Positions 18,132 through 58,900 of a stretch of DNA of 64,000 nt are shown one piece after another (position 1 is the stretch's first letter; every line of letters begins with the position of its first letter). The translations under genes were made by a program, and so were the position numbers. The DNA is from a virus, in the IMG/VR virus record IMGVR_UViG_3300021962_000031; one strand, 5' to 3'. The notes below the pieces were generated by a model. The model saw only the letters and a program-made list of their open reading frames with translations, had not been told where the DNA came from and did not search any database.

Positions 18132-20038
18132 TGAGTTGCCAAGGTCGATGGCCGTGTTGTTGTAATCGCGCAAGCCAATGTCTTGCCTGCGATTCCGATC
18201 CTACAGGCGGCGAGTATGACTACGCTGTCATCGTTCGCTTCGGGGCGAAAGAATCCAGCTTATACAATTCGCAAGAACAAAAATATCTGCCGGATTTTGA
18301 TTTTTCGTCTCCGGAACGCTTTCTGTCATTGAAGCTCAACGGACAGAATTTACCCATCCCCCATTTGGTAGAACGAAACGATTACAATAACGACTACTAC
18401 TATTATTGGTATTGGAACTACCATTATTACGGGTGGGCGGTCTACTACACAAACCCCAGCGTTTTGGGTCCGCTTGTCAACGCCACACGCTGCCCTTGCT
18501 TGAATGATGTCACAACCATGTATGGTTGGAATTACTGGTGGCTTCCCGGCTGGTGGTATCAAGGCCCAGAGTTTCTCAGCGACCCGTCCACGCAATACAT
18601 ACCTATGAGCAAAGGTATGTTTCAAGCCAACAACAATGACATGGACCTGCGCTTCTCTTCGTTGCCGTTCAACTTAGACGAATGGCCCACCGAGAATCCG
18701 CTGAAGACAGCGGATGTCGATGCCAGCTTTGTGGTGATTCGTTTCAAGAATGGTATACCAGAATGTGTCTCTACCAAAAGTAAATTGACTGCTAGTCTTC
18801 GCTCTCAGGAATACGACTACTCTAGTAATTATAACGGTTACTACTACTGGTGGGGCTGGAACGGATACTGGTGGGGGATATCTGTAGGCGGAGCCTATTT
18901 GCCCGGCTCCAACCAACCCCCTTATACGGCAGGTTACTGCCAATGGCCATTTCCCAATAACGGCTATTACAACTACTGGTATGGCTGGTATAACGGCTAC
19001 TACTCAAATTCCAACCGCAGCCTAGACAAGTATTGGGGTAGTGGTGGTCACACATACTTTGACCTGTGCGCCTACGAACAAGACTCCCTACCTCCGTGCG
19101 GCGGTAATTTGCCAGGAACTCTCAATGTCACGGTTGTGACCAAATGCCTAGGGACACAAAGCGCACAGGTATCGGCGGCCACCCCGCTTTTTTCAGACTA
19201 CGACAACACGCAACCCATTCCGTACACCTACACAAATTGCGGTAACTTTACGGAAATCCAAGCAGATACCTCTACCTATTACATGTTCGCCCACGCTCAG
19301 TACGATCAGCCTTATACCTATCAAGGCGACGATCTTAATAAAAAACTACGCGAGTGCAAGTTTCCTTTGAGTAGCGCAGGTGCTTCTTATTACCTTATCA
19401 ACAAGATCGACAAAGGTAGTGAGCCGATTGATTTTGGAATACCCGAAGGACAACAAGAATACTATCTTGGTTATGCTTATGAATATTTTATTGATGATGG
19501 GAACTATACCGCAGAACCACAGAACCCGGTCATACCTGATCATTACAAAGATGATAAAGGAAATATAATTCCGCGTTCTTCTATTATTCAATCCTGGAAA
19601 ATAGGTGACCCATACTATTATTATTGGTATAATTGGTACTACAACACAGATTATGATCTTTATTATATTTGCGAACAAGGTGGAGTTAATTATAAAAACA
19701 AACACGACAATATTGTTTATCAGGACTGGCCGCTTGATTTGCGAGACGAGCCGATTCGATGTAGTCCGTTTGTGACCGGTCCTGCTCGTTCTAGTGCTTA
19801 TTCATATCACTATGCGGTTTCTACTCCGATAGTTACTCGTTTTGAATTAGCGCCCAGATACGATAATACAAAAACCAGCCGTGATTATTACTACTGGCAT
19901 AAAATCAACGGATCTTATGTTCAACTCAAATATAGACTTTGGGACCTTTATGGCATCAGTCGGGTCTGGTCAACCAACTGTCACTCTTGTGAGCTTGGAT
20001 ATAGAGTTGCCCACCCACCAATCACGGTGACACCATGA
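18125..20038 (+). CDS. Tyr/Trp/Cys-rich putative virion protein (possible receptor-binding)
   Basis: N-terminal CC..C..C cluster; several YYYYWYW-type patches; lies in the tail operon; start may be ATG 18131. Confidence 0.5.
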   Translation: MLMSCQGRWPCCCNRASQCLACDSDPTGGEYDYAVIVRFGAKESSLYNSQEQKYLPDFDFSSPERFLSLKLNGQNLPIPHLVERNDYNNDYYYYWYWNYHYYGWAVYYTNPSVLGPLVNATRCPCLNDVTTMYGWNYWWLPGWWYQGPEFLSDPSTQYIPMSKGMFQANNNDMDLRFSSLPFNLDEWPTENPLKTADVDASFVVIRFKNGIPECVSTKSKLTASLRSQEYDYSSNYNGYYYWWGWNGYWWGISVGGAYLPGSNQPPYTAGYCQWPFPNNGYYNYWYGWYNGYYSNSNRSLDKYWGSGGHTYFDLCAYEQDSLPPCGGNLPGTLNVTVVTKCLGTQSAQVSAATPLFSDYDNTQPIPYTYTNCGNFTEIQADTSTYYMFAHAQYDQPYTYQGDDLNKKLRECKFPLSSAGASYYLINKIDKGSEPIDFGIPEGQQEYYLGYAYEYFIDDGNYTAEPQNPVIPDHYKDDKGNIIPRSSIIQSWKIGDPYYYYWYNWYYNTDYDLYYICEQGGVNYKNKHDNIVYQDWPLDLRDEPIRCSPFVTGPARSSAYSYHYAVSTPIVTRFELAPRYDNTKTSRDYYYWHKINGSYVQLKYRLWDLYGISRVWSTNCHSCELGYRVAHPPITVTP

Positions 20039-20391
20039 AGCCGTGCCCGAACGATCCATCGATCTGCAAGTGTGCGATCTGCAAGCTGTACAGCACCGAT
20101 CCAGTTTATCGGGCACATTGGGATGGGGTGGCTTTGCCAACACCCGCACAGCCAGCACAACCACCACCGCTTCCTGGTCTGTTGCGACAAGGACTGAATC
20201 TGGCTACCGCCATCGTCCAACATGTCGCCGGAGGGTTGCAATCAGCTGATAGCGAAACATATCAAAAAAGAATGGAAATTTGCAAAGCTTGCCCCAAACT
20301 TCGGCCCGACAACCGCTGTTCTGGGTGCGGATGTGTTATGAGCGTAAAGGCCTCGTGGGACGAGCAAAAGTGCCCCGATGGCAAGTGGTGA
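20035..20391 (+). CDS. Small Cys-rich protein (DUF6171-like C-terminus)
   Basis: RMEICKACP...RCSGCGC...KCPDGKW motif; ATGA coupling to the upstream gene. Confidence 0.6.
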   Translation: MKPCPNDPSICKCAICKLYSTDPVYRAHWDGVALPTPAQPAQPPPLPGLLRQGLNLATAIVQHVAGGLQSADSETYQKRMEICKACPKLRPDNRCSGCGCVMSVKASWDEQKCPDGKW

Positions 20392-20420: not shown

Positions 20421-21092
20421 ATGCCGGCGTCAATTTCATTTTATGCGGGTCAGTTCGTAGAGGGGGGAACCTTCTCGACTTTCCAGATTGCCGACCTAGC
20501 CGGTTCCGGTTTGGGCTTTTACGGTGGCGGATTTGGAGAATCCGTAGCCGTTGGCCAAGCCCAAGACAAGACCTTCGTGACCAATGCCACGGGTGTCAAC
20601 CAGGGCGTCGAAGCTTGGAATGTCAAATACGCCAACGCAGGAAGCGGGTTGGTGGGCCGCGGCACCTCTGCCATCCCCCTCCGTGCCATCCCCAACTGGC
20701 AATCCACCGTCAATGTCCGATTCACGAACGACACTTCCGTAAAGACCCAGAATGTCAAAGCCTACATCTTTGATCGGGTTCTTCCAACCAATCCAGCCTC
20801 CGGTGTAACTACTTACCTAGCAGAGATCGTACACCCCGTCACTGTTCAGGACTCGGGAAGTCCTACTGGGTCGGGTTCGACAGCTTGGGAAGTGTTTACG
20901 ACTGCCGGCCAAACTACACCAGCTCAGCGAGACCCGGTCACCTTGACGGCCTCGCCAGGAACCTCTGGTCTGCGTCCCTCGGGCGCAAACACGATGGATA
21001 TCCGCCACGACTGGTATTTGGCATTGTCAGCATCCCCGGACGGGATCGGGAGTAAGCAGTTCGGACTCTGGGTCCAACTGGAATATCTGTGA
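20421..21092 (+). CDS. Putative virion structural protein
   Basis: Strong RBS aaggaggt; Gly/Thr/Ser-rich; followed by a terminator. Confidence 0.6.
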   Translation: MPASISFYAGQFVEGGTFSTFQIADLAGSGLGFYGGGFGESVAVGQAQDKTFVTNATGVNQGVEAWNVKYANAGSGLVGRGTSAIPLRAIPNWQSTVNVRFTNDTSVKTQNVKAYIFDRVLPTNPASGVTTYLAEIVHPVTVQDSGSPTGSGSTAWEVFTTAGQTTPAQRDPVTLTASPGTSGLRPSGANTMDIRHDWYLALSASPDGIGSKQFGLWVQLEYL

Positions 21093-21116: not shown

Positions 21117-21148
21117 AAGGCCCGCCCAAAAAGGCGGGCTTTTTCGTT
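21117..21148 (+). terminator. Rho-independent terminator between convergent genes
   Basis: gcccgcc-caaaaa-ggcgggc followed by ttttt. Confidence 0.8.
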
Positions 21149-21149
21149 T

Positions 21150-21872
21150 CTAGGCGAACTCATAGCCACGGTTGGGAATGAAGACTGCCCTTTTCCTCGT
21201 CGCCGTAGGACGGGGCTGGGTGAGGTAAGTGGTTGCCGCCATGGCTAGATATTGGTTTTCGCCACCGGGCGTTTGGAGTGAACGGACAGACATCCAGCCA
21301 TTATCCTGGCTTTCATAGATAACCATGCGTCCCTGGCGCGGTTCAATTTCACGAACCACATTGAAGCCGACATCGTCCCACAACAGATGCTGGCCTTTCC
21401 AACCCACATTCCACTCCGGCGTCAAAAATAAAAGCACATTGACCCGTCGCTCCAAGTTTAGGATGGGATGCAGTTCGTAGCCCATATGGGGGGCAAGGAA
21501 GCCGCCATTGTCATAGCGGTAAATGCCCATCCCGTGCAGGCCTGGGTCAGCAATCAAATTGGGAATACCTATGGCATTGCTAACGATATTGATAAACGAT
21601 GGAGACTGCATCGCCTCCAAAAGGTTCCTGGTAAACGGCGACAGCGAGGGCAGTTCGCGGGTGGTGCGCTTCCTCTCAAAATCATTATTGTAGACCGTCC
21701 AGTTTGGCCAATTGGATGGAGGCAGCGTGTAAAAGGCCTCGTTTAGAACTTGTGGGTCAAAAGCGTTTTCGATGATTAGGTGGGGATATGGTCCGGTTGC
21801 AACATTGCTGACGATGCTGTTGCCACCGAAGCCTGGCACCGGTTCGCCAGCGATCACACTTATTGCTGCCAT
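21150..21872 (-). CDS. 2OG-Fe(II) oxygenase-like protein (prolyl-hydroxylase-like family) with degenerate metal ligands
   Basis: PYPHLIIENAF, LIADPGLHGMG, LERRVNVLLFL, IEPRQGRMVIY motifs; RBS aaggag before ATG 21872. Confidence 0.75.
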   Translation of the reverse strand: MAAISVIAGEPVPGFGGNSIVSNVATGPYPHLIIENAFDPQVLNEAFYTLPPSNWPNWTVYNNDFERKRTTRELPSLSPFTRNLLEAMQSPSFINIVSNAIGIPNLIADPGLHGMGIYRYDNGGFLAPHMGYELHPILNLERRVNVLLFLTPEWNVGWKGQHLLWDDVGFNVVREIEPRQGRMVIYESQDNGWMSVRSLQTPGGENQYLAMAATTYLTQPRPTATRKRAVFIPNRGYEFA

Positions 21873-21956
21873 TTCGTTCTCCTTCTTTTGATAATAACCG
21901 CCACCACCCCCAGCACGCATAGAACCATATGACACGGGATTGTGCTGGAGGACAGT

Positions 21957-22994
21957 ATGCCTACGCCCTTGCTTACTATCGGAATGGCGACCTTTGACGA
22001 CTTCGACGGCGTCTACTTCACCCTCCAATCTCTTAAGGCTTACCACGACCTGACCGATGTTGAGCTATTGGTCGTTGACAACAAACCCGAAGGCTGCACT
22101 CACACCAAGACTATCTGCGAGTGGACGAAGACACGCTACCTGCACAGGGGCCACGCTACCGGCACCTCCCTCCCCCGCCAACTTGTCTTTGAAGAAGCAC
22201 AAGGGGAATGGGTCATGTGCATGGACAGCCATGTCTTGCTCACGCAAGGGGTTGTGTCCAAGGTTAAGGAGTTCATTCGTTCTGGCAAAGCCGAACGCAA
22301 GAACCTTTACCAGGGACCGCTTCTTTACGATGACCATATCAACATGGCGACGCACTTCGACCCAGTCTGGCGCGACTCCATGTATGGCACCTGGGCGACT
22401 GATGAGCGAGTCAAGCTTGGGGAACCGTTCGACATCCCCATGCAAGGCCTCGGCCAATTCATGATGTGTAAGGAAGAATGGCCAGGCTTCAATACCCTGT
22501 TCAGAGGCTTCGGTGGTGAAGAGGGGTATATTCACTCTAAGGTGCGCAAATTCGGTGGCAGGGCGATGTGTGTCCCTTGGATGACCTGGCTGCACCGGTT
22601 CGGTCGGCCCAAGGGTGTTCCCTATCGCCTCGTTCTTGAAGATCGCGTGTTCAACTACATCCTAGGTCGCCGCGAGATCGGCCTGCCTTATCAAGATGTG
22701 ATTGAACACTTCACGGGCAGGATGCCCGAAAATAATCTCAAGGCGACAGTCGCCGAGGCCGAAGCACTAGATTTTAACGAGGGCGTTTTCCCTGAGCGTT
22801 TCCGCAGTCTGCAAAAAATCGTTCGGACTCAACCGTGCGTTTATCGCACGGAATTACCCATCGACCGGGCTGACTGCAACTGCCCCTTCAAATTCGTTTA
22901 TGGCTGCGAGAAGCACGAGAAGTGCCGACCGTTCACCGACAACGGAGACGGTGTTCGCTGCTGCCAAAAATGCGAAGACTACGAGGAGGTCTGA
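21957..22994 (+). CDS. GT-A glycosyltransferase, polypeptide GalNAc/GlcNAc-transferase-like (GT27/GT60-like), with Cys-rich C-terminus
   Basis: LLVVDN, MDSHV (DxH), PMQGLGQF, GFGGEE, GGRAMCVP..LHRF motifs; RBS ggagg. Confidence 0.8.
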   Translation: MPTPLLTIGMATFDDFDGVYFTLQSLKAYHDLTDVELLVVDNKPEGCTHTKTICEWTKTRYLHRGHATGTSLPRQLVFEEAQGEWVMCMDSHVLLTQGVVSKVKEFIRSGKAERKNLYQGPLLYDDHINMATHFDPVWRDSMYGTWATDERVKLGEPFDIPMQGLGQFMMCKEEWPGFNTLFRGFGGEEGYIHSKVRKFGGRAMCVPWMTWLHRFGRPKGVPYRLVLEDRVFNYILGRREIGLPYQDVIEHFTGRMPENNLKATVAEAEALDFNEGVFPERFRSLQKIVRTQPCVYRTELPIDRADCNCPFKFVYGCEKHEKCRPFTDNGDGVRCCQKCEDYEEV

Positions 22995-22995
22995 G

Positions 22996-23211
22996 GTGCG
23001 CCTAGAAGACATCCCCAAAGATATTCGAGATGCCATTGAGATGGCAGGCTGGGCGGCAGCAGATGCCTTCCTGGCCAAACTCGAAGAAAGCCTACCCCTC
23101 TGTGAGTGGGGTGGATACCAGCCCGAGATCGGCCCCTGGGTTGGCGGTATTTGTCGTAACTTACGCAGTGCCCTAACCGGTGGGTCAATCCAAGGTTCAA
23201 CCGATGAATGA
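22996..23211 (+). CDS. Hypothetical protein
   Basis: GTG start just after the GT stop; coupled to the next ORF. Confidence 0.5.
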   Translation: MRLEDIPKDIRDAIEMAGWAAADAFLAKLEESLPLCEWGGYQPEIGPWVGGICRNLRSALTGGSIQGSTDE

Positions 23212-23405
23212 GCGAGGATTTTCCAATGTCGGAAGAGATCGAAATTGTACCGGCCCCCGAGTCTCCGATGCCGGAGTTTACGGCGACGGCAGACCAGTCC
23301 GTTCTGATCGACCCGCGGGTCTTTTTGCCGTTCCAGGTCGTCGCCCACCCAATCGATCTGGTCGTGGTCGAGACCGAGCTTCCTAGTCAGCCTACGGCTG
23401 AATGA
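23208..23405 (+). CDS. Small acidic hypothetical protein
   Basis: ATGA coupling; ends just before a terminator. Confidence 0.5.
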   Translation: MSEDFPMSEEIEIVPAPESPMPEFTATADQSVLIDPRVFLPFQVVAHPIDLVVVETELPSQPTAE

Positions 23406-28297: not shown

Positions 28298-29091
28298 GTC
28301 AGCATGGCCCTCATGAACGCCTGGGCAGAATCGACCGGCGTGTACTGAATAAACAAATCAACCAACTCACCAAAGACTTCTTGTCGTTCAAATTCGCTGC
28401 TAAGAACGAGGTCTTCGACAAGCTTTATGTAAGTTTCAGGAAGGTTGCGAGAAGTCGGAAGGGAATTGTCTCCGGCAACTACAGGGATAGTCCCCACTCG
28501 CAATGTCTCGTAAATTTTACGAACATCACTCGCCTCATCGGCAGACATGGCATGTACATAGGTCGAGGCCAAGGCACGCGCTCTTTCCTCGGTTGTCAGA
28601 GAGCCAGCGTAGTATGGAACAGGCCACGGCTTGTCGGCGTAGATACGGGCCACAAAACTCTCATTCTCAAACAGAGGGATAAAAAAAGCATCGTAGCCCG
28701 GACGGTATTGATCCAGAAAAATCACATCGGTCGCCAAATCGTTGCAATAAAGCGACTTGCCATCCAAACACATGAAAGGCCAACGGATGACAGGCAGCCC
28801 CTGCTCGTTGTCGTCGGTGGTGAACAGAAATGCCCCTGGCGGCAGCTTGTCCAAGAAAGTGAAACTATCCTGCCACAAGGCCAGTCGGCACTTGCCCTGA
28901 TTGCGAAGCAGGGCGGGTGTGATGGCGGATGTCGGGCCGATAAAAAGGTCGGGTTTCTGTCTGGCAAAGGCCTCGTGGGTGGGCATCTTTGACGGAACCC
29001 ACAGGGCCGCATCATGTCCAAGCTGAACAAAACCGCGTGCCAAGGCGCCTGTCCCCACACCATTGTCATCATTCTCAATGAGAATATTCAT
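28291..29091 (-). CDS. GT-B glycosyltransferase-like protein (CgeB-like)
   Basis: LARGFVQLGHD, KPDLFIG, RKIYETLRVG motifs. Confidence 0.5.
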   Translation of the reverse strand: MNILIENDDNGVGTGALARGFVQLGHDAALWVPSKMPTHEAFARQKPDLFIGPTSAITPALLRNQGKCRLALWQDSFTFLDKLPPGAFLFTTDDNEQGLPVIRWPFMCLDGKSLYCNDLATDVIFLDQYRPGYDAFFIPLFENESFVARIYADKPWPVPYYAGSLTTEERARALASTYVHAMSADEASDVRKIYETLRVGTIPVVAGDNSLPTSRNLPETYIKLVEDLVLSSEFERQEVFGELVDLFIQYTPVDSAQAFMRAMLTC

Positions 29092-29861
29092 GCTGTCACG
29101 CCCTTGCGCCTTAGCTTGGTAACCAAACTTTTAGCTCGTTCAATATCCTGAGTGCTGTCAATTTCTACGAGATTGGTCTTGTCTGGGTAAGCCGGCACAA
29201 TGATGCCATGCGCGTCAATAATTCCGTTAAGAACCTCATAGGCAAACCAACGGGCACTCTGATTGCGCGAAGCAACTCGCCGATACAAGTCAAGTTCCTT
29301 GTCTGCCAGTTGCACGGCCTGACCCCATTTGGGCCAGACCCCATAGCTGAAATGGCAGACTCGTTCTTGGTCGATGTTGCATCCGACTTCGCCAGAACGA
29401 TGATTCTGATTCTCGTCAATAATTGCGGCAGAACCTTCTTCTGGTAGGCATTCAAGAAAATCGGGTCCAAAAACCAAATCTCCACACATCAAAATCACCT
29501 TCTTGGCGTTTGCGTGATTTACGCCAACAAGGAGAGAGCGGGCCACATTGGTATCTTCGTGGGATGAGTTTTCTACCCAGCCAACATCCTTTGGCAAAAC
29601 CTTTATCACCCGATCCTTCTGGTAGCCAACAACCACGATGATTTCAGCTTTTGGCAATGCCTTGCGGGCGAACACAATCTGGCGACTGAGAACGGTCTCG
29701 CCGCCGCCGATTTCGATAAGGGCTTTTGGGCCTCGGGCCTTCATGCGGCGCCCAGCCCCAGCCGCGCTAATTACGACAGCAAGGTCTGGCAATGGCGATC
29801 CCTCATGATTTTTACCTGTTTGGCCATGAACTCGGATGGTGTGCGCCTGCTGAGCTGCCAT
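29088..29861 (-). CDS. Nucleotidyltransferase (LicC / sugar-phosphate NTP-transferase family)
   Basis: ISAAGAGRRMK..GPKAL, VVVGYQ, GDLVF, VEIDSTQD motifs. Confidence 0.85.
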   Translation of the reverse strand: MAAQQAHTIRVHGQTGKNHEGSPLPDLAVVISAAGAGRRMKARGPKALIEIGGGETVLSRQIVFARKALPKAEIIVVVGYQKDRVIKVLPKDVGWVENSSHEDTNVARSLLVGVNHANAKKVILMCGDLVFGPDFLECLPEEGSAAIIDENQNHRSGEVGCNIDQERVCHFSYGVWPKWGQAVQLADKELDLYRRVASRNQSARWFAYEVLNGIIDAHGIIVPAYPDKTNLVEIDSTQDIERAKSLVTKLRRKGVTA

Positions 29862-30520
29862 GTTCCTTCGTTGACGCTCATCATTGGATCGGGCAGATGT
29901 AGGATGACCCGGTCAGCAGCGATTCGCATCCACAATTCATAATCTTCGGCGGGAGGCAGGGCTTCATCGTACAAGCCGACATTTTCCAGAGCAGATTTGC
30001 GAATCACGCAAGCGGAATGAACCATGTTGTCAAAAAAGAGTTCTCGTTTTACGAACGCCTTTTTGCAATGGCGGAACGAGACGCCATCACGCACCTGGAA
30101 GTAATCGGTATAAACCGCACCGGCCATCTCTCCATACTTTTCCAGTAGGTCTACGCAGGCTTTCAGTCTGCCTGGAAGGAAACGGTCGTCCGCATCCAAA
30201 ATGGCAAAATATTTTGTCTTATCCCAACTGACTTTGATGGCCACATTTCGTGCAGCCGCTGGCCCTTGGGATTGGTGGGCAGAGAAAAGATTAACTTGGA
30301 CATCCTTGATCGTGCCGCGGACAAAAGGTATTTGCAAAATTTCATCGTGGGCGGCGTTTTCCATTGATCCCAAAAGAGTGCGCACGGAGTCATCGGTTGA
30401 GCCATCATCAACAACAACGACCAGTCCTGGCTTTTCTGCTGCGGCTGATTCAACCGCGCCCACCAGAAAATGGCCGTAGTTGTGATTAGCAATCACAACC
30501 GCAACATCCTCAAGCGACAT
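29771..30520 (-). CDS. GT2 glycosyltransferase
   Basis: VVDDGSTD, GPAAARN, LDADD, EDYELWMR. Confidence 0.9.
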   Translation of the reverse strand: MSLEDVAVVIANHNYGHFLVGAVESAAAEKPGLVVVVDDGSTDDSVRTLLGSMENAAHDEILQIPFVRGTIKDVQVNLFSAHQSQGPAAARNVAIKVSWDKTKYFAILDADDRFLPGRLKACVDLLEKYGEMAGAVYTDYFQVRDGVSFRHCKKAFVKRELFFDNMVHSACVIRKSALENVGLYDEALPPAEDYELWMRIAADRVILHLPDPMMSVNEGTWQLSRRTPSEFMAKQVKIMRDRHCQTLLS

Positions 30521-31307
30521 GAGGAAGTTTTCCGTCGATGATCAGGTATTTGGAATTCTGTGCCTGAGCGATTCGCCTCAGCTTTTCGGATATGCTGGCG
30601 ATCTTCTCTTCGGTCCCTTCCCAAACCACTTCGTGGAAGCCTCCGGCCATGTTGAAGGCCATGGTTTGCACAAGCGTGCCATGAATCATGCCGGGGTCCA
30701 CCAACACAACCCGCTGCCCCTGATCGTTGATGAGATGATCAAGATCGGACAGGTAACAGTTTTCCAGTTCCTTGCCAGCCTCGGCAAACAAGATGAAAAC
30801 CGATTTCAGGTTGTTCCCTGCCCCCTCCTGAAGCGAGTCAAGTTCGGTGTATGATTCGTCCATTACAAATCGCAGCGAGTAGGGATAAGACAGGGACAAG
30901 TCGCGCAGGGTGGCCAGAACATCCTTGGGCTTGACCACGGAACGGGGAGTGATAACGAACACAACTTCGTTCGGCTTAAGGCTTTGCTGCTCCAACATTT
31001 CTGCGGTGCGGGCGACATCAGACAATTCGCCACGCTCACAGGAGACGATGGCGGCGACGGCAAGGACTCGTTCCTTTCGCGCCTCGGCTATCGCTTGACC
31101 ATCTTCAAGTTCCTTCATCCAATCCAAAGGACGGAATAGGGGGCAGAACCGATCAATCGTTTTGTAGGACTTTGTCCCGCCGATGTCTTCTAGCTCAATC
31201 TTTCCTTCTGACCGAAAATAGTCCAGCATGTTAGCGCGACAGCCGGTCTGGTCTCCGCTGACATTACGAATGGCGAAACGACATTTTTCACACGAAGTGC
31301 TGATCAT
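30510..31307 (-). CDS. Hypothetical protein with N-terminal Cys cluster and degenerate GT2-like domain
   Basis: CEKC...C...C; LEQQSLKPNEVVFV; FNMAGGF; no DxD. Confidence 0.45.
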   Translation of the reverse strand: MISTSCEKCRFAIRNVSGDQTGCRANMLDYFRSEGKIELEDIGGTKSYKTIDRFCPLFRPLDWMKELEDGQAIAEARKERVLAVAAIVSCERGELSDVARTAEMLEQQSLKPNEVVFVITPRSVVKPKDVLATLRDLSLSYPYSLRFVMDESYTELDSLQEGAGNNLKSVFILFAEAGKELENCYLSDLDHLINDQGQRVVLVDPGMIHGTLVQTMAFNMAGGFHEVVWEGTEEKIASISEKLRRIAQAQNSKYLIIDGKLPHVA

Positions 31308-31756
31308 TGACGGATGGCCTCCACATAGCTGGTGAAATCGCTGACATAGGAACGGACGGGGGTCATGCCCAGGCTACTGAGCATGGTGCGAAGCTGGGGC
31401 AGAGTTCCTGCGCTGGTGCGCCTTTGTCCGCCGCCACCGCCGTAAATGAGTTGTATAAAATCAGAAATGTCGCCCAGAGTGACTTTCCGACAAACCTCAA
31501 CAATCTCGCGAGTGCCGACAACCATCACGCCGCCTCTCGCTAGTCTGGAGACCCAGTGGGTCAACAGCTTGGTGCGGAACTCAAAAGGGTAATAATCCAA
31601 GACATCGGTCGCTTGGATTTCCAGGGCCTCGCCCTCTTCGGCAAGCTGACTAAGATCGGCAGGATTGCCGGGTGATTCTTGACTGGCTGGATCGACCTCG
31701 ATAAAGCCGGGTAGGCCGAGCTTTTGGCCTCCCACAGTCATGCGGATTTTGACCAT
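31304..31756 (-). CDS. Class I SAM methyltransferase-like protein, degenerate
   Basis: EIQATDVLDY...LLTHWVSRLARGG pattern; poor Gly-rich motif I. Confidence 0.55.
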   Translation of the reverse strand: MVKIRMTVGGQKLGLPGFIEVDPASQESPGNPADLSQLAEEGEALEIQATDVLDYYPFEFRTKLLTHWVSRLARGGVMVVGTREIVEVCRKVTLGDISDFIQLIYGGGGGQRRTSAGTLPQLRTMLSSLGMTPVRSYVSDFTSYVEAIRQ

Positions 31757-32769
31757 TGCTTCCTCCACCACGGTGCGCGGGCGGCAACTTGCAATGCCTG
31801 TCCCCACTCCCGAACAAAACGCTCCAAACCAAACCGCTGACGGGCCTTTTCCGCAGCAGCTCTACCGATTACCTCGCAGTAGGCGGGATTGCCCAAAAGC
31901 CTTTTGACAATAGCGTTCATTTCCTCGGGAGTGTCCACAAGGAAACCGGTCACGCCATGTTCAATGGCTTCGGTCACCGCCCCAGCCCGGTAGGAAACAA
32001 CACAACAGCCAGAGGCCATGGCCTCAAGGACGGTGGTCGGGAAGGTGGAGCGGGTGGCCGTGTTCAGGAATATCAGACTTGTGCGGTATGCCTCGGTCAG
32101 CTCTTGCACGTTGGCGGCAGCTTTGGACAGCCCGGGCGTATCGCCCAGAACACGAGTGGAAAGATCGGCAGTAGCCAGTTTCCAGAATGAGAAACCGCAA
32201 GCGGCGTCTCGCTTGATCCAGTCGTTGACAACGCTCAGGCAGATCGGTTCACGCGGCACCCAAGGCTCATGCGGACAAAACTGATTCGTGTCAATGGCGT
32301 TGTATATGACACTAGTGTCGGGAAGGACCTGACTGTCCCATTCCAGTCGCTGATTGTCGGTGATGTAGACATTGTGGTCACCACGCCGAGAAGACACTGC
32401 ACGCCGGGTATTTTCGTCCCAGCCTTCTTCGGGCAAGGTGTGTTCCAAACGCAAGAGCGGCACATTGTAGAAGGTCGCAGCCTGTAAAGCCCGGTCAAAC
32501 TGGCTATGGTGTTGACATAAGACGAGGTCCAAATCAATTTCTACGGGAATGGCTGGCGACGACGGATGGAAGGGGAGCAGCACATGATTGTCCGGCATGG
32601 CGGCGTAGTGATGCACCCAGGGCTTGGCGTACTGGTCGTTCCACAACAAAAAAGTAGCGTTTATATCAGCCCAGGCACTCTGAAACCGTTCGTGCGTGGT
32701 AAAGGTCAGGACATTGACCCTCTCCGGCGAACGAACGGCGCTATTCAGAATGCTGGCTATGTTGGGCAT
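31738..32769 (-). CDS. GT4 glycosyltransferase
   Basis: IYNAIDTNQF, FPTTVLEAMASGCCVV, HGVTGFLV. Confidence 0.9.
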   Translation of the reverse strand: MPNIASILNSAVRSPERVNVLTFTTHERFQSAWADINATFLLWNDQYAKPWVHHYAAMPDNHVLLPFHPSSPAIPVEIDLDLVLCQHHSQFDRALQAATFYNVPLLRLEHTLPEEGWDENTRRAVSSRRGDHNVYITDNQRLEWDSQVLPDTSVIYNAIDTNQFCPHEPWVPREPICLSVVNDWIKRDAACGFSFWKLATADLSTRVLGDTPGLSKAAANVQELTEAYRTSLIFLNTATRSTFPTTVLEAMASGCCVVSYRAGAVTEAIEHGVTGFLVDTPEEMNAIVKRLLGNPAYCEVIGRAAAEKARQRFGLERFVREWGQALQVAARAPWWRKQWSKSA

Positions 32770-32834
32770 AACAGTATCCGTTAATAGCGGCCGAAGCGAC
32801 CGCTGCTAACGATCTTACCCGGGAAGAGGGAGGC

Positions 32835-33578
32835 TTAGTCTCCCAAACGCTCAAGGATATGGCGAATTAAGCCATGGCGCTGAACGTCTTCTGGCCCCAG
32901 AGTGACCTTGGCGATGTCAGGATGACCCAACTTTTCCCACACCCAGATGAGCGGATTGCCTTCGCTGTGGGGCAAGTCTGTCTGGGTAACGTCTCCGCAA
33001 ACAATGACCTTGGAGTTCTCGCCGAATCGGGTCAAAAACATCTTCATCTGTCGGCGGGTTACATTCTGAGCCTCGTCCAGAATGATCACCGAGTTATGAA
33101 ATGTCCGACCGCGCATCGTTTCCAGGGGGACCACTTCAATGGTCTCTTTGTTGCGACAGTGCTTAAGAAAGCCAGGGTCAAGAAAATCCCCGAAGGCATC
33201 AAACATGGGGGCCATGAAAGGATCGGTCTTTTCGCCCAAAGTTCCAGGCAGGGCGCCCAGTCTTTGACCACATTCCACGATGGGGCGGGTAAGAATAACC
33301 TTCTCAATCTTGTTTTCAGACAACCAGTTGGCGGCCAGACCGCAGGGGATATAGGTTTTGCCACATCCAGCTGGGCCGGTGCAGATTGTTAATGTGCAAG
33401 CCTCGATGTTGTTGATGTAGTTCTGTTGGTTGGGCGTCCGAGCCTTAATTTTTTTGGTGTTCTTCTTGGATACAGCCCGTTGTTCGACGTCGGCGTCTCG
33501 TGCTTCCTGCCAAGGAATCTGGTCTTCGCCATCGAAGTCCTCAAGGAAGTCCGTCCACAGCTTGTTTTTGCGTCGCAT
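32835..33578 (-). CDS. phoH: PhoH-family ATPase
   Basis: GPAGCGKT, LGALPG, MRGRTF, LDEAQN, GDVTQTD. Confidence 0.95.
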   Translation of the reverse strand: MRRKNKLWTDFLEDFDGEDQIPWQEARDADVEQRAVSKKNTKKIKARTPNQQNYINNIEACTLTICTGPAGCGKTYIPCGLAANWLSENKIEKVILTRPIVECGQRLGALPGTLGEKTDPFMAPMFDAFGDFLDPGFLKHCRNKETIEVVPLETMRGRTFHNSVIILDEAQNVTRRQMKMFLTRFGENSKVIVCGDVTQTDLPHSEGNPLIWVWEKLGHPDIAKVTLGPEDVQRHGLIRHILERLGD

Positions 33579-34668
33579 GGGTTAAAGCCTCCAGGAAGGT
33601 CTTGCCGACCTTCAGGGGGTTGAATTGGAACGCCACATCCAGACCCCGCGCCGCTTTTACCTGGCGAAGGTCGTCCTCCATGTAAGCCCTTCGCATCAGC
33701 CCAGCCATCTCCAAAGTGAACGGAACCTGCCAATACTCGTCGCCACGGTACAGTTCGGCAGGTTCGTCCTGCCCTCCCGTACAAGGCTCGTCGTAAGTTG
33801 GAATCAGATAACCGGTCTCCTCGGAGATATAGGACTGATATGTTCCGGTGTCGGGTACGATGGGGGTTTTGCCCATCGCCATAGCATCGAATGCGGGATA
33901 TGACCAAGCTTCGCCACAGGAAGCCTGGACAAAACAGTTGGCGTATGCGTGGAGGCCCATGAGTTCGTCCTCACTCAATCTTTCGGTGAGAACGACAACC
34001 TCCGGCAGATAGTGAAGCTTCATTCCGTTGGCGATTTCTTGCATCATCGCCTGGACGCGGTGTTGTTCACCGTTTGTCTTAATGATGAGGACTGTATTGT
34101 CGGTGGGTCGGAATGCGCTGAAATAACTTTTGATCAGACCGCCCAAGTTCTTGCGCCGAACATTTTCGCTAATCGTGTAGAAGATAAATTTGCCAGCCTT
34201 GACATAAGGCTGGAGAAAACTGGGGACTGTGTGGGTTTTCATGTAGCGGTCGGGATCGCTGGGCAAGGGCAGGCTAGCCACAGGGACTTTGACATTGCTG
34301 TTCTTACAGGCCTCGGTCGAGATACCGGGCGTGGTGACCACAAGGTCCATCTGATTCAAACGCAGGTCCCACCCCGCCGAATTAAAGCGGGAAGCCTCGT
34401 AATAAAAGTTGGCCACATTCAGACCCAGTCTGCGGTCGAACAAGGTGACTGACGGGAGGGTGTGCTGGATGACCACATCCCATTTGGTGGGCGGGTTTTT
34501 TTCTTCCAGTCGATAGATTCTTTCTGGGCAGGATTGTTGACCGCCATTGAAAGTGATTGGACGACAGACGACATTGGCCCCGGCTGTCTCCAAAGCAATG
34601 GCTGATTCGCAACAAGCTCTTGCGTAGCCTGTGCCGTCGTGAAAATTTCCCACATAGAGAATATTCAT
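33541..34668 (-). CDS. GT4 glycosyltransferase
   Basis: GTGYA, RRKNLGGLI, SCGEAWSYPAFDAMAMGK. Confidence 0.88.
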   Translation of the reverse strand: MNILYVGNFHDGTGYARACCESAIALETAGANVVCRPITFNGGQQSCPERIYRLEEKNPPTKWDVVIQHTLPSVTLFDRRLGLNVANFYYEASRFNSAGWDLRLNQMDLVVTTPGISTEACKNSNVKVPVASLPLPSDPDRYMKTHTVPSFLQPYVKAGKFIFYTISENVRRKNLGGLIKSYFSAFRPTDNTVLIIKTNGEQHRVQAMMQEIANGMKLHYLPEVVVLTERLSEDELMGLHAYANCFVQASCGEAWSYPAFDAMAMGKTPIVPDTGTYQSYISEETGYLIPTYDEPCTGGQDEPAELYRGDEYWQVPFTLEMAGLMRRAYMEDDLRQVKAARGLDVAFQFNPLKVGKTFLEALTHATQKQAVDGLP

Positions 34669-36263
34669 GACCGCTGAGCCTCCCAGAACTCCACACGCTC
34701 ACGCTCCGCACAAAGTTGCGCCCAGGCATGCTTCCGTTCGTAGCCGCCCAGTCTGCCGCCAGGCCCGAAGCCGGTAAAACGTCCGGGAGTGAAGGTGGTA
34801 TCGCAAAAAGTCCTTGAGAGGTCTCGGGTCATTCTCTGAGCCACAAAACCAGCCTGGGCCGAAGAAATACCCAGGGCTGACTGAAACGCCTCGTCAACCC
34901 ACTCTCTGTTAGTGAGATGATCAGGGGGCATTTGCAGAGGTGGCAATTTTCGTGCAGTATCTTGATATCTTTTTATAGGTGGTGAAAGTTTACTGATTGC
35001 ATTGTGCCAAATCCCACCCGCTAGATCATAGTCAAAAGTTTTGATGGCCAAATCTCGTTGCTTGGAGCCAATTGCTCTACGAGCAGCTGGAGGCAACAAA
35101 AGAAGGTTGTTCAAAATTGCGATAAGATCATCGTTTTTAGGTAGGGCCATAACTCGGCCCGTTTCCAGTTCGGTGAATGTGCGCTCGACCGAAATGGCTT
35201 GGGCATCCAAAGCGGACGCCACACTGGACATGGCAGTAAAATCGACCGAGGTCACCGGAACACCACAGGAGGCAGCTTCCACCTGGGGCATTCCAAATCC
35301 CTCGCAGACCGAGTATTGTACGAACACGTCCATGGATGAATACACCGGGCGCATGAACGCACGGGGCAGGCCAGCAGCCACGCCGGGAGTGGTTAATTCC
35401 CCACTAGCACAGAAGGGGCAGTACCCCGAAGGTAGCTGCCAAAGCAAGGCAGAGGCCCTGTCGCACTTCTTGCACGCAAAAGTAAACAGGGTTCTGTGGG
35501 CCACATTGTAGCGAAGAAGGTATTTAGGGATGTCCCACCCAACATCCGGCCATGCCGTGTGACAATATAGATACAATCGATTGGCAATATGGGCTGGTGC
35601 GGACAGCAAGAACTTCTCAAAAGTTTCAAATAAATCCGGCAACAATTTCCGGCCTTGGTTTCGCATGACCGTCCCAATAACTAGGGCATCCTGCGAGATG
35701 TTGAGGGCCTTTCGCGCCTCCTTTTGGTCAAGTGGATGAAACACATCCGGCTCAGCACCAGGAGAAGCAACCCCAAACAAATTAAGACCAGGAAACTTCT
35801 TCAGGACGTCAAAACCATACTGAGAGTAAGCGAGAATCGCATCGGCACGGTTGAGAATCGCAATCCATTCCTCATCTTGCGGCTCACCGTCTACTGGATG
35901 CATGAATACCCAACGGAAATAGTCGCGCAGGGGAGAATAGGCGATGAACGAATCCTGCCACGGATCACGCATGGAGATCACGACATCGGGCCGGAACTTC
36001 ACCACCGCTTCCTCAAAAGCCGTAGCTCCAAGAGCGGCGTTGGAGTTAATCAACGCAGACGATGGATAATCATCACCTCTGGTAGTCACAAAAAAGGCGG
36101 GCCAGGGAGACCCGGCCCGCCTTGGATCGTTTGGAGTGCCGTAACACGCCAATTCACCGATTTCGTGACCAACAGCTTTTAGTCTTCGGGCGATCTGTAG
36201 CGCATAAGTGGCGTAGCCGGTTTGCAGCCAAGTCGCCTCGCCAACTAGAAGGATGCGGGCCAT
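34665..36263 (-). CDS. GT4 glycosyltransferase with a zinc-ribbon insertion
   Basis: TGYA, RNQGRK, EGFGMPQVEAASCG; CKKC...CPFC insertion. Confidence 0.9.
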   Translation of the reverse strand: MARILLVGEATWLQTGYATYALQIARRLKAVGHEIGELACYGTPNDPRRAGSPWPAFFVTTRGDDYPSSALINSNAALGATAFEEAVVKFRPDVVISMRDPWQDSFIAYSPLRDYFRWVFMHPVDGEPQDEEWIAILNRADAILAYSQYGFDVLKKFPGLNLFGVASPGAEPDVFHPLDQKEARKALNISQDALVIGTVMRNQGRKLLPDLFETFEKFLLSAPAHIANRLYLYCHTAWPDVGWDIPKYLLRYNVAHRTLFTFACKKCDRASALLWQLPSGYCPFCASGELTTPGVAAGLPRAFMRPVYSSMDVFVQYSVCEGFGMPQVEAASCGVPVTSVDFTAMSSVASALDAQAISVERTFTELETGRVMALPKNDDLIAILNNLLLLPPAARRAIGSKQRDLAIKTFDYDLAGGIWHNAISKLSPPIKRYQDTARKLPPLQMPPDHLTNREWVDEAFQSALGISSAQAGFVAQRMTRDLSRTFCDTTFTPGRFTGFGPGGRLGGYERKHAWAQLCAERERVEFWEAQRS

Positions 36264-52561: not shown

Positions 52562-52806
52562 CAGTAGTCCTCATCTTCCTCATCAAACTCAATATCGCTG
52601 TCGGCACAACCAATCGACCAGCGAGTCTCGGTCAGGCTGACAGCCCGAGGAGAAAGGCTTTCGCGCAACAAATTCCCGTTCAAATCGGCATACACTAGGA
52701 CTAGGCTGCCATCATCGGCGAAAGCCGTTATTGTCATGGGAGGAGAGCCGCTGTTCAGGCAGACTACATCCCCAATGTCAAATTCACCGTTGTCCCTCGA
52801 CATCAT
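52561..52806 (-). CDS. YodC/DUF2158-like small protein
   Basis: FDIGDVVCLNSGSPPMTI. Confidence 0.75.
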   Translation of the reverse strand: MMSRDNGEFDIGDVVCLNSGSPPMTITAFADDGSLVLVYADLNGNLLRESLSPRAVSLTETRWSIGCADSDIEFDEEDEDY

Positions 52807-53518
52807 TTTCCCCTCGCGTGCGCCAGAAAGTATGAAAATCAGCTGGGTCAGGCTCTTCGGCTACGGGAGGAGCCTGGGTGGTGGTTGGAGCGGTGGTAGT
52901 CGTAGGGCTTTCGGTGGTGGTTGACACGGAGGATTCCGTAGGAACAACCTGGACTTCCTTGCCGTTGACGCCGTCCAAAGGCTTGGTGGATACGATCTTG
53001 TAGGACAGATTGCTCAATCCGTCTTTGGAGCGATCATATCCAGAATTAAGTCGCTTGGTAGCTTTGAAGTATTCCTCGGATTCGTGTGAGTTTTCCGGGA
53101 AAGAAGCTTCGCGACGGAACATGAGGATGCGGGCTTTGTGGATGCGATTGTACAGGTCATGAACATGCACACAGGTGCCCGGATAACCGTTGGAAAACCC
53201 GTTGACCTCTTCAAAAATTTCCGAGGTCATCATTTGGATGTGTCGCATCTCAACGAAAGCATTTTCGGGAGAATAGTCGGCGTCTTCCACCGGGACATGG
53301 TCGGTGGGATGAAAGACATAATAAGCAGCATCGCTTACCTGATAACCGACATTTGAAAGCCATCCTTCATTGGTTGGACCTTCATCGCCCTGACGAACCA
53401 CGATAACCTCGTAGTTCAGACCAGGATTCTTGCGGTCAATCTGCTCTTTCAGGGCCTTGAGAAAACCCGAAAGGTCGTTGCGCAGACCGGAAGGAACAAT
53501 AATGGCAGTCTTGTGCAT
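52784..53518 (-). CDS. GT7 (beta-1,4-galactosyltransferase)-like protein with degenerate motifs and Thr-rich tail
   Basis: HKTAIIVP, YEVIVVRQ...NVGY, FEEVNGFSN.Y, DLYNRI, DGLSNLSY follow the GT7 motif order. Confidence 0.7.
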   Translation of the reverse strand: MHKTAIIVPSGLRNDLSGFLKALKEQIDRKNPGLNYEVIVVRQGDEGPTNEGWLSNVGYQVSDAAYYVFHPTDHVPVEDADYSPENAFVEMRHIQMMTSEIFEEVNGFSNGYPGTCVHVHDLYNRIHKARILMFRREASFPENSHESEEYFKATKRLNSGYDRSKDGLSNLSYKIVSTKPLDGVNGKEVQVVPTESSVSTTTESPTTTTAPTTTQAPPVAEEPDPADFHTFWRTRGENDVEGQR

Positions 53519-55968: not shown

Positions 55969-58900
55969 TTATCCGTGAAAAGCATTACCACAACCAGAAT
56001 TGTTGCAGTCATTGAGACTGGCGTAAGTCCCGCCCGGTCCATTTACTTCCTGACAATCGTAAATGGGATCAAAGCCAGCCATGCCGATTATTGCGCAGTT
56101 GTAAGTTTTAACTGCCGGAGTTCCTGTCGTACCTGGAGAAGTAGTTTCAGGAGTAGAAGTCGTGGCTGGGGGAGTTGTATTTGGGTTGGTTGTTGTGGTG
56201 GTTGTTGGCGCAATAGTCGTTGTGGTGGTAACCGGTTCTGGAGCCGGAGTCGTGGTTGTTGTGGTAGTAGTCGTCGTAGTTGTGGTAGTAGTCGTGGTGG
56301 TCGTAGTTGTGGTAGTAGTGGAAGTAGTCGTACTAGTAGTGGTTGTTGTCGGCTCAGCTGTCGTGGTAGTCGTAGTCGGCGCAGCCGTCGTAGTGGTCTG
56401 TCCACAGACTTCATCGCACGCATACATATTTTCATATGGACCAGAAATAATATTAAAATTTGATTCTGGAGGTGGCATTGAATTAAATGTCTGACATGTA
56501 TAAAAAGCACCCGAGGGGCCGGAGTAATAAGCGCAATACCAACCAGCCACAAACGGTTCAGCTGTTGTAGTAGTTGTGGTCGGCGCAGCCGTAGTAGTGG
56601 TCGTGGTTGTGGTTGTTGTCGGCGCAGCCGTCGTAGTTGTGGTGGTCGTGGTAGTAGTCGGTGGACAACCAGATTGCTGACATGCAATTTCATTAGGATA
56701 AGGACCCGACAATAAATCATAATAAGTGTTATTGTTATCAAACCTATCTCCAACTTCCGGTTGAGAGCTAAAATATAAGCATCCAAAACCAGAACCAACG
56801 ATACGTCCATACATAGAATAACAATAATGACCAGCCACAAATGGCGCAGCCGTCGTGGTTGTTGTCGTTGTCGTAGTCGTGGACACACAAGCCGCATTGC
56901 ACGCCGACAGCGAGGCGTAGGGGCCTGCATAACTCACCAGCGGATTTGCCGCAGGCCGACTGGCAATATAACTGCAACTCTTTGTGTTCTGGTAAGTGTC
57001 ATCTACGCAGTAGTAGCCAGCCACCCAAGGCTGTGCCGTGGTCGTGGGAGGGGGCGTGGTGTCATCAGGAGGATTTCCTCCCTTGCAGGTAGAACTATAA
57101 ATAATGGCTTGTCGTTCTGGATCATTGGCATCGTTTAGTGTGTGCAGGACGCCAGTAAAGGTTTCCATATGGCGCGTGGACGGATTGCTTCCACCCATCG
57201 CAAAAACAAGCTCTTGTGTCTGGGACTTGCTGGAATCGTAATAGTAATATTGGTCACCATAGTAAGTTGTGATCTCTCCAACACCCAGCTCATTCCCTCC
57301 AGAATGAGCCGTGGTGACTACGCCTTCAAGAAGACGCATGGCAAATTTGCTGTTGATTAAATGCTTTAGATTAAGATTGTAGGTCGCAGCCACATTAGCA
57401 TTGATTCCGCCGAATTTCCATCTGTTTGGCATGAACCAATTCTGTTCGTCGGCGCTCAACTCGTAATGGACTTCTGGAGTTTGGAGCTTGAGATGGATTG
57501 TCTTGGCAGAATCTACCGTGTTGGTGAATTTGAACACAATAATCTCACCAGCCGAGCAAGATAGCCTTTTTTGTTGCGAGTCAAAAAGATTTGTGTAAGT
57601 TACGCTCGGACTTCCAGAGGCATTCCAGTTCCGATAAATATCCAGGCGAATTCCACCGGTCTGGTATCCTCCCGCATTCAAATAATAATTAGCAGCATAT
57701 TGAGAACGGAATCGGAAATACTTGATTTCATTTGCGCCAATCAGATTATAAAGGATCGTATAGTTAGTCGGGTAAACAACCGGTTCGATAGCTGTGTCTG
57801 CCTCGTATTGATAAGCAGCCAAAGCCGAATCACCACCATCATCTCTATGTACCGACCAGACCGTCTTGGTGTCGTTGGTTGAAGTCAATACTTCCAGAGA
57901 CCAACTATCAATATTGACAACAAATGCCCCGCCCGTAGTGTTAGCGATCAGCCCCAAGGTCCATTCACCGTTGGGCGAATCGTTGAAAAGATCGGTCAAA
58001 TTAGTTCCGTAGGGACTAGCTGAATCATCCCAATAATTTTGAGACTGGTTGTTATTGGGGTTGGGTCGGAAAGAACCAGAGGCGCCAAAAGTTAGAACAG
58101 GGTCGGCACTGTTGTTGGTTATCGTGTAATTCTGACCAACACCATCAACAGGAACAGATAGTTGGCCAGCAATCAGCACATCCTTACCGGCTGGAGACCG
58201 AAGGATCAACACAGTATTGCTGGTGGTAGCCGTGGCGGCAAGATTGTACAGTCTGAGGGTCAACCCCGAAATAACTCCGGCCATTCCAGAGAAAGTCAGT
58301 TTGCCGCGCCGCAAAGCACTTCCTGTCGATTGAGGAGGTCCGAAATAATAAGTAACATTGTCAATAGTGGTTTCACTTAACAGCATCTGAACTTCTGGAA
58401 CTTCAGATGGCCAGGCTGGCGGTGGTGGCAGGGTCGCCGGGTCCATATTCAATCGCACATACATGTTGGGCTGGGCACATTCCGTGCAAGTGCCATTGTA
58501 AATAAAAGCAGCATTTTCCCCCTCAAACGGGTGAATGGCACAATCATAGCTAAACGGAACATTGTCATTTAGTGTCACAGTAAGAGTCACATCCCCACCA
58601 TAAAAACCATCAGCGACATTGCCGCTGGCGCCGTTTGTTGTCGCTTTGACCAGCCGACTAAAACCCTGACTATCAAAAACTCGGAATGGGTGGGCTGATG
58701 TATTTTGAAGGTGAAACTTATAAGTTTTGTTGGCTACCCATTTTGGGTTCTCGGGAGTGATCTCAAACCAATTCGTGTTATTGCTACTAAATTCAAATCG
58801 ATAGGAGCCATTATTGGCGTCCACGGCACGCACATAGGTTTCTTCGGGCAAGCAATTTCCTGCGACAACAGGAGAAACAGTCGTGGTCGTTGTCGTGGTC

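Follow-up and report, generated by a model that had tools for sequence, protein, structure and literature searches.

The 64,000-nucleotide stretch analysed here, referred to as the window, was taken from the IMG/VR virus record IMGVR_UViG_3300021962_000031 and is part of a 149,106-bp phage record. Behind its tail module it encodes a 345-aa glycosyltransferase (GT), which is the subject of this report. We favour, with moderate confidence, the reading that this protein is a soluble, cytoplasmic and metal-dependent enzyme of the GT-A type, standing nearest to the families GT27 and GT60, and that it glycosylates the threonine (Thr) residues of poly-Thr phage proteins. Its fold is best matched by the polypeptide N-acetylgalactosamine (GalNAc) transferases of GT27, its motifs are complete and conserved among the homologues, and its family is genomically linked to Thr-rich proteins in both phages and bacteria. 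Because the relatives sit right after the genes of Thr-rich, mucin-like proteins, the GT probably coats the phage's own Thr-rich fibres with sugar.

Fold, motifs and conservation of the glycosyltransferase

The AlphaFold2 (AF2) model built on an alignment has a predicted local distance difference test (pLDDT) score of 84.7 overall, and the score is mostly >90 over residues 1-280. In the Foldseek comparison with the PDB, all of the ~48 top rows were GT27 polypeptide GalNAc-transferases (ppGalNAc-Ts), with E-values down to 8e-15. In VIA, which is independent of Foldseek, mouse GalNAc-T1 gave a Z score of 21.9 (root-mean-square deviation 3.5, 264 residues aligned) and Toxoplasma GalNAc-T3 (TgGalNAc-T3) one of 20.9; after these GT27 enzymes came the chondroitin polymerase K4CP (18.1), TarS (17.1) and B4GALNT1 (16.6). 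The overlay on a ppGalNAc-T, which the initial annotation had proposed, thus yields GT27 enzymes as the best PDB folds by two methods, and the grouping with ordinary GT2 enzymes that it had named as a possible refutation was not seen. Among the predicted viral structures, a member of the GT's own family came first, followed by several GT60-type phage proteins labelled 'GlcNAc' (N-acetylglucosamine; E ~1e-11).

The sequence searches gave a different result. The sole Pfam match is PF00535 (Glycos_transf_2, GT2; E 6e-8, 33.2 bits vs a cut-off of 23.3), which covers residues 8-110, and this N-terminal half resembles TarS, TarP and PglI-type enzymes. Neither PF02709 nor the GT60 profile PF11397 was matched in the Pfam scan at E ≤ 1, where the HMMER filters may hide very weak matches; no match was obtained by phmmer against the PDB at E ≤ 1, and the PHROGs and NCBIfam searches gave nothing useful. 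When a profile of the C-terminal half was compared with 177,635 PDB sequences, a single and weak match was obtained, namely human GalNAc-T7 (E 0.088), in the register PAMAGGLFA/IPMQGLGLFA, WGGEN/FGGEE, GGKLLFVP/GxxxLCLP and His/H213. The likeness to GT27 is therefore genuine and closer than a shared GT-A fold alone would give, yet the protein is not a member of GT27 or GT60 by sequence. In other words, the GT27-like character claimed at first holds for the fold, for the DxH motif and for the C-terminal His, and does not extend to family membership, since the suggested profile search returned GT2 for the N-terminal half and neither of the GT27/GT60-side profiles.

The motifs themselves were all found in the claimed order: LPRQ...AQGEWVMCMD90-S-H92-V, IPMQGLGQF (161-168), FRGFGGEEGY (182-191), FGGRAMC205VP207 and W211-L-H213-RFGR. 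In an alignment of 38 homologues, D90, H92, Q119-G-P, M162, G164, G166 and F185-G-G are invariant, and so are E189, G190, Y191, C205, P207, W211, H213, R214 and F215; the cited motifs are thus not chance words. The motifs that define the family (DxH, QGP, PMQGxG, FGGEEGY, C..P and W.HRF) are all present in this GT. The GGE is kept, and the next residue is an invariant Glu (FGGEEGY) where GT27 has WGGEN(x)E. The residue at this position is Asn in GT27 and the catalytic Asp in the inverting GT7 enzymes. Since Glu rather than Asn follows GGE, alpha-GalNAc, that is, the strict 'mucin-type' linkage, is not implied. A survey of GT-A enzymes reports DxH in place of DxD for GT27 and GT60 alone, and puts these two families in one group with GT7 and GT2-CHS (PMC7185993).

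The GT starts directly at the first beta strand and has no membrane segment. In a second metagenome strain, eight sites within the gene vary, seven of them at third codon positions, a sign of purifying selection, and near-identical DNA was found in freshwater, river, estuary and aquaculture metagenomes from 11 studies. In the metatranscriptomes, two 151-nt contigs at 22909-23217 in one data set and a 34-nt partial match in another were found, which is insufficient to show transcription. The Cys-rich C-terminal domain noticed in the initial annotation is also present as a tail of the core (Table 1). It is limited to the lineage of this phage (P0002-P0011, L002, L003 and L005-L013), has no Pfam match and is unstructured in the AF2 model (pLDDT <50); it is probably zinc-binding.

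Linkage of the family to Thr-rich proteins

The ~270-aa core of the GT is 45-58% identical to >2,500 proteins in one database, and a second database contains ~1,700 clusters of relatives at 50% identity. In IMG/VR, 426 contigs carry a relative, and of 185,579 species genomes 392 do, the bacterial carriers belonging mainly to Chloroflexota/Thermomicrobiales, Planctomycetota, Actinomycetota, Alpha- and Gammaproteobacteria, Gemmatimonadota and Acidobacteriota; a tblastn search of 50,697 GenBank phage records gave no match. Depending on the lineage, the core is fused to GT2 or GT25 domains, methyltransferases, ATP-grasp, DUF7164, MauE-like membrane domains or HprK-like domains. In a tree of 116 representatives, the linkage to Thr-rich proteins appears in all major clades, and the GT of this phage falls within a well-supported clade that contains Thr-linked members.

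To describe this linkage, an open reading frame (ORF) was counted as Thr-rich when it had at least 13 Thr per 30 residues, and the upstream zone was defined as the 3 kb that precede the GT on its own strand. A clear concentration in the upstream zones was found for the 80 IMG/VR phage loci: these zones make up 19% of the DNA and hold 35 of the 42 Thr-rich ORFs, with 7 in the other 1.03 Mb (binomial p = 3e-19). When the phage GTs were clustered at 70% identity, 12 of 25 clusters had an upstream Thr-rich ORF, 11 of them directly abutting. The 78 bacterial loci gave a similar profile, 45 of the 56 Thr-rich ORFs being located in the upstream zones and 11 elsewhere (p = 6e-18; 11 of 22 GT clusters). 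After the low-complexity tracts were masked, 78 upstream ORFs of phages and bacteria separated into 29 unrelated families, whose only common feature is the Thr tract. The T-x-x-P type of spacer accounts for 64% in the phage and 41% in the bacterial GT-adjacent proteins vs 18% in random poly-Thr loci when the spacers are pooled; counted per protein family, the difference (0.34 vs 0.20, p = 0.06) is not significant.

The upstream ORFs differ according to the carrier. In phages they encode large proteins that resemble fibres and contain Cys-rich, Ig-like or Calx-like modules, in many cases within structural regions. Those of the Alphaproteobacteria are 80-140 aa long and consist of a leader resembling the twin-arginine translocation (Tat) type and an almost pure poly-Thr tail, and in other bacteria PqqD-like domains or membrane anchors precede the poly-Thr part. 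Some details of individual loci are recorded here for their own sake. At the alphaproteobacterial loci L250, L252, L256, L267, L273 and L279 the leader reads RRxFLK...PAHAA, and sometimes two or three such ORFs stand in tandem, directly upstream of a 610-630-aa protein whose C-terminal half is the GT. The upstream Thr-rich phage proteins at L053 (7849-9975), L073 (5954-6793), L075 (2649-3485) and L080 (1041-1382) are dissimilar, with the common C-terminal words C..CNKLGY/F. At L051 (9995-11392), a family GT with a C-terminal S-adenosylmethionine (SAM)-dependent methyltransferase follows a 249-aa protein that is almost wholly poly-Thr. In the related phage records G040, G041 and G044 of IMG/VR (behind L347, L348 and L351), the GT matches contain an in-frame TAG or TAA, for which broken genes, recoding or assembly errors are possible.

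We also examined the presence of poly-Thr among related phages by Fisher tests, using the 49 IMG/VR records that have the family of the 223-aa protein preceding the GT in this lineage; 19 of them carry the GT and 30 do not. Runs of at least 10 Thr codons were found in 12 of the 19 records with the GT and in 2 of the 30 without it, both of the latter being simple ACC/ACT repeats (p = 3.4e-5). The difference persists among the records that are at least 90% complete (4/4 vs 1/8, p = 0.01) and when one row per GT lineage is used (4/5 vs 2/30, p = 0.0014). The pattern T4-x-x-P-T4 occurs in 8 of the 19 and in 1 of the 30 records, and the runs of at least 10 Thr codons are present in all five close relatives of this phage. 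Where a GT-positive record has no long run, it comes in most cases from a clade whose GT stands after the genes of a primase, a deoxynucleoside monophosphate (dNMP) kinase and a nuclease; even so, one complete genome of this type encodes a (TTTTVAP)n protein. A control search based on PhoH recovered only this phage's own lineage. The co-occurrence with Thr-rich proteins expected in the initial annotation is thus upheld by both the family-wide adjacency and the presence and absence among related phages.

In the whole genome of this phage, two proteins are strongly poly-Thr. The first is the 1345-aa protein whose mucin-like Thr tracts had been pointed out in the window at the outset, and which is indeed poly-Thr; 6 of its 11 inter-tract spacers are of the form x-x-P. 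Its gene lies on the minus strand beside the ribonucleotide reductase gene and outside the tail module. The second is a 333-aa protein encoded upstream of the window, in the structural arm, with a Thr stalk at its N-terminus and a domain of the LamG lectin type. The genes that precede the tape-measure gene include a fibre-like cluster (L294:2651-9534, genome 22651-29534). It encodes three proteins with LamG/ConA-like lectin domains, one of the LamG proteins bearing the poly-Thr stalk, and a 1409-aa protein whose C-terminus is weakly of the depolymerase type.

The other sugar-related genes claimed for the window were recovered as well: the GT7-like gene by matches to PF13733 and PF02709, and GT2 and GT-B genes together with a nucleotidyltransferase gene at 29-36 kb (Table 1). 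The products of these genes (the GT7-like enzyme, the GT2, the three GT-B proteins and the nucleotidyltransferase) could supply or extend sugars, and they are tied to the GT by the common genome alone. The tail of the GT7-like enzyme is Thr-rich (TTTESPTTTTAPTTTQAPP), and for this reason the enzyme may itself be a substrate.

Proposed reaction and alternative explanations

In the reaction that we propose, Mn2+ and the diphosphate of a UDP-sugar would be held by D90, H92 and H213, and the conserved, aromatic-rich C-terminal half may form the acceptor groove. One monosaccharide would be moved onto the Thr hydroxyls of extended poly-Thr tracts in the cytoplasm of the infected cell. The acceptors would be phage proteins made late, namely the fibre-like 1345-aa protein and the 333-aa poly-Thr/LamG protein, which would be modified before assembly, and other GTs of the phage may lengthen the first sugar. 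Such a reaction is of a known kind, direct protein O-glycosylation by a GT-A enzyme, and the reading is supported as a hypothesis.

Several facts weigh against it, and some of them count at the same time for the most serious alternative, in which the GT is an ordinary GT2 enzyme with a glycan or lipid acceptor and, together with the GT island of the phage, makes or alters a polysaccharide, either of the host envelope or a phage glycan. One is that the sequence similarity to GT27 is not significant (profile E-values of 0.2 and 0.088; 12-17% identity in the structural alignments). Another is the Pfam label: PF00535 is the only family matched, the N-terminal half is of the TarS, TarP and PglI kind, and GT2 acts mostly on glycans and lipids. 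The Glu after GGE is akin to the catalytic Asp of the inverting GT7 enzymes, so that the chemistry may differ from that of GT27. The last group of facts concerns gene positions. In this phage no Thr-rich gene adjoins the GT, the candidates being 29-34 kb off, and about half of the family loci are without a Thr-rich neighbour. The clade with the GT after the primase, dNMP kinase and PD-(D/E)XK nuclease genes is mostly without long Thr runs. Among random poly-Thr phage loci, 1 of 118 had a GT nearby (there directly downstream of the Thr tract); most poly-Thr phage proteins are thus without an adjacent GT. The GT2 alternative is also favoured by the GT2, the three GT-B and the nucleotidyltransferase genes of the window, and by the fusions of the family to further GT2 or GT25 domains. 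Nevertheless, we regard it as unlikely. Against it stand the linkage to 29 unrelated Thr-rich families in phages and bacteria, the co-occurrence with poly-Thr inside the related phage group, the fact that protein O-GalNAc transferases come first in the structural comparison, and the absence of a membrane segment for a lipid-linked acceptor.

A further alternative accepts the glycosylation of Thr-rich targets and places these targets outside the virion, as secreted, host-surface-directed or host proteins, so that the particle would carry no coat. The position of the 1345-aa gene next to the ribonucleotide reductase gene would suit it, as would the bacterial substrates of the family, which look like exported peptides. 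On the other hand, in many phages the Thr-rich neighbour looks like a large fibre protein, has Ig-like, Calx-like or Cys modules and is encoded in a structural region, the 333-aa protein is encoded in the structural arm, and the GT follows the tail genes in this lineage. We therefore give this alternative a small probability, and prefer as targets Thr-rich proteins of the phage that would become part of the virion.

It is very improbable that the GT belongs to a pathway of the Skp1 type, in which proline is hydroxylated by a 2-oxoglutarate (2OG) oxygenase and the hydroxyproline then receives GlcNAc from a DxH enzyme, as with Gnt1 of GT60. In its favour, the divergently transcribed gene next to the GT (21150-21872) does match PF13640, a family of the prolyl-hydroxylase type, DxH is shared with GT60, and GT60-like phage proteins are among the nearer structural neighbours; however, the oxygenase gene was inserted in this lineage only and is lacking here in all relatives, its iron-binding motif is degenerate, PF11397 is not matched by the GT at E ≤ 1, and across the family the GT is paired with a Thr-rich protein instead of an oxygenase. 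Equally slight is the chance of a DNA or nucleotide glycosyltransferase that hypermodifies the phage DNA: the GT stands right after the primase, dNMP kinase and PD-(D/E)XK nuclease genes in one large clade, but that site is where the replication module meets the structural one, the window has the same block (42618-45402) without a GT, the phages with the primase block also carry poly-Thr or TTTTVAP proteins, and no known DNA glycosyltransferase is among the closest folds.

Gene neighbourhood, related systems and significance

The positions of the features are compiled in Table 1. The GT was said to stand next to the tail module, and it follows this module here, with the same gene order in the relatives L002, L003 and L005-L012: the tape-measure gene, the genes of four large proteins, the DUF6171 gene and the gene of the 223-aa protein lie on its 5' side. 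The tape-measure protein is very long, and that of a relative has 4551 aa. In the tail module, a 637-aa protein (18125-20038, plus strand) has extreme Tyr/Trp/Asn-rich stretches, e.g. YYYYWYWNYHYYGW, and no family match.

Table 1 Features of the window and their positions
Feature	Position	Strand	Evidence or remark
Glycosyltransferase (GT) gene, 345 aa	21957..22994	+	ATG 21957, stop 22992-22994; GT-A core residues 1-280, then Cys-rich tail
Ribosome-binding site GGAGGA	21946..21951	+	6 nt 5' of the ATG, read from sequence
DxH metal-binding motif, D90-S-H92	22224..22232	+	Invariant across 38 homologues
Gal/GalNAc-T-like motif region PMQGLG...FGGEEGY, residues 161-191	22437..22529	+	Matches GalNAc-T7 PAMAGGLFA...WGGEN
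H213, candidate C-terminal metal-binding His ('C-His')	22593..22595	+	Invariant; aligned to the His of the GalNAc-T7 'GH' motif
Cys-rich C-terminal tail, ~60 aa, residues ~285-345	22809..22991	+	Seven conserved Cys and one His
Mucin-like protein, 1345 aa, poly-Thr tracts between small Cys modules, candidate acceptor	55969..60006	-	Translation
GT7-like glycosyltransferase, Thr-rich C-terminal tail	52784..53518	-	PF13733, E 1.5e-7; PF02709, E 1.4e-4
Glycan-gene island: nucleotidyltransferase, GT2, three GT-B genes, interrupted by PhoH	29088..36263	-	Sugar-related genes at 29-36 kb
Tape-measure protein, 3868 aa	826..12432	+	PF10145 at the N-terminus, E 2e-23
DUF6171 Cys-rich protein	20035..20391	+	PF19668, E 4e-7
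223-aa all-beta protein, last tail-module gene, usual GT neighbour in the lineage	20421..21092	+	Conserved in a large phage group
Terminator-like GC hairpin and T5, end of tail operon	21120..21144	+	Read from sequence; absent from the consensus-scan list
2OG-Fe(II)-oxygenase-like gene, between the 223-aa gene and the GT	21150..21872	-	PF13640, E 4e-9
65-aa ORF directly 3' of the GT	23208..23405	+	tblastn, 79-81% identity, L005-L013

The 223-aa gene keeps its position in the relatives without the GT, and its pairing with the GT thus reflects a module boundary, not a proven partnership. Its AF2 model is poor (pLDDT 41), and the protein showed no similarity to the 221-aa ORF of L014. The oxygenase-like insertion was found only in this genome and is absent at this position in L002, L003 and L005-L012. 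As judged by eye, the HxD motif of its product reads H-M-G and the position of the distal His reads W; most of the differences from the second strain are in third codon positions, which suggests that the gene is still under selection. On the 3' side of the GT, a 74-aa gene is called in L002 and L003 at the position of the 65-aa ORF. Elsewhere in the window, a minus-strand block at 42618-45402 consisting of a primase gene, a 205-aa ORF and a PD-(D/E)XK nuclease gene matches the block that precedes the GT in the large related clade. As the block here is without the GT, the GT has moved between module boundaries in this phage group.

In phage L047 (9902-11746) the GT ends in a fused DUF6171 domain (E 6e-7), with 43% identity in the DUF6171 tblastn comparison; in the present phage DUF6171 is encoded by a separate gene 1.5 kb upstream of the GT, so that the two families are linked by a gene fusion. 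This domain of L047 occupies the position where the Cys-rich tail sits, and it is of the same family as the gene at 20035-20391, which hints that small Cys-rich domains may be accessory modules of the GT. BLAST of the tail against the DUF6171 protein gave no similarity, and a search for DUF6171 as a general partner recovered only the seed sequences among all loci.

Among the known systems, the ppGalNAc-Ts of GT27 are alike in having a GT-A fold with a second Gal/GalNAc-T-type subdomain (the best structural match), in the order of DxH, GGE and the C-terminal His, and in the association with Thr-rich, mucin-like acceptors that are often punctuated by T-x-x-P. Unlike them, the phage GT has neither a signal or type II membrane anchor nor a ricin-type lectin domain, the position of the latter being taken by the ~60-aa Cys-rich tail, and it would act in the cytoplasm of the infected bacterium, whereas GT27 enzymes act in the Golgi lumen. 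The GT60 enzymes (Dictyostelium Gnt1 and a Trypanosoma cruzi enzyme) share DxH, are cytoplasmic or soluble and act directly on protein hydroxyls, and the family has prokaryotic members (PMC7185993); the phage GT differs from them in lacking both the PF11397 match and a conserved partner hydroxylase, its partner being poly-Thr instead. The beta-1,4-Gal(NAc) transferases of GT7/GT2-CHS (beta4GalT and K4CP) belong to the same deep GT-A clade, have the GGE-acid motif and give the third-best fold, but they carry DxD, not DxH, and use glycan acceptors.

According to PMC11256854, citing Freeman et al. 2023, phage-encoded glycosyltransferases of the mycobacteriophages (Che8 and relatives) modify structural proteins in the host and give a glycan-decorated particle; the glycans are on capsid proteins, not on mucin-like poly-Thr stalks, and in the literature searched these phages are the only ones for which virion glycosylation is described. 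They have no relative of this GT, as judged from the GenBank phage records searched by tblastn. Our literature search, in which few subscription journals were covered, found no description of the GT family, of phage poly-Thr glycosylation or of the bacterial cassettes, and a paper on linear polyphosphorylated peptides (PMC13381572) does not describe the GT family. The bacterial cassettes, made up of a Thr-rich peptide, PqqD, an HprK-like kinase and a GT, have the same GT family at the identity level given above and the same adjacency to Thr-rich ORFs; the phage GT differs in being without kinase, RRE or Tat-leader partners, and its likely acceptors are large fibre-type proteins.

To our knowledge, mucin-type O-glycosylation is regarded as having arisen in eukaryotes, and apart from a few mycobacteriophages, phage particles are generally considered unglycosylated. 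We tentatively suggest that a mucin-type-like O-glycosylation exists in phages and bacteria, in which a compact cytoplasmic enzyme of the same deep clade as GT27/GT60 coats poly-Thr, and that mucin-like fibres may occur on many uncultured aquatic phages, among them the present one. If the reading is true, the long Thr runs in the fibres of many uncultured phages would be explained, and the glycan coat would affect adsorption, stiffness, protease resistance or adhesion in abundant freshwater phages. The GT would also be a small, soluble enzyme of bacterial type for making mucin-like glycoproteins. Finally, it would provide a testable link between the prokaryotic GT-A enzymes and the GT27/GT60 clade, and this GT family could be the prokaryotic or viral stock of the eukaryotic mucin-initiating enzymes.

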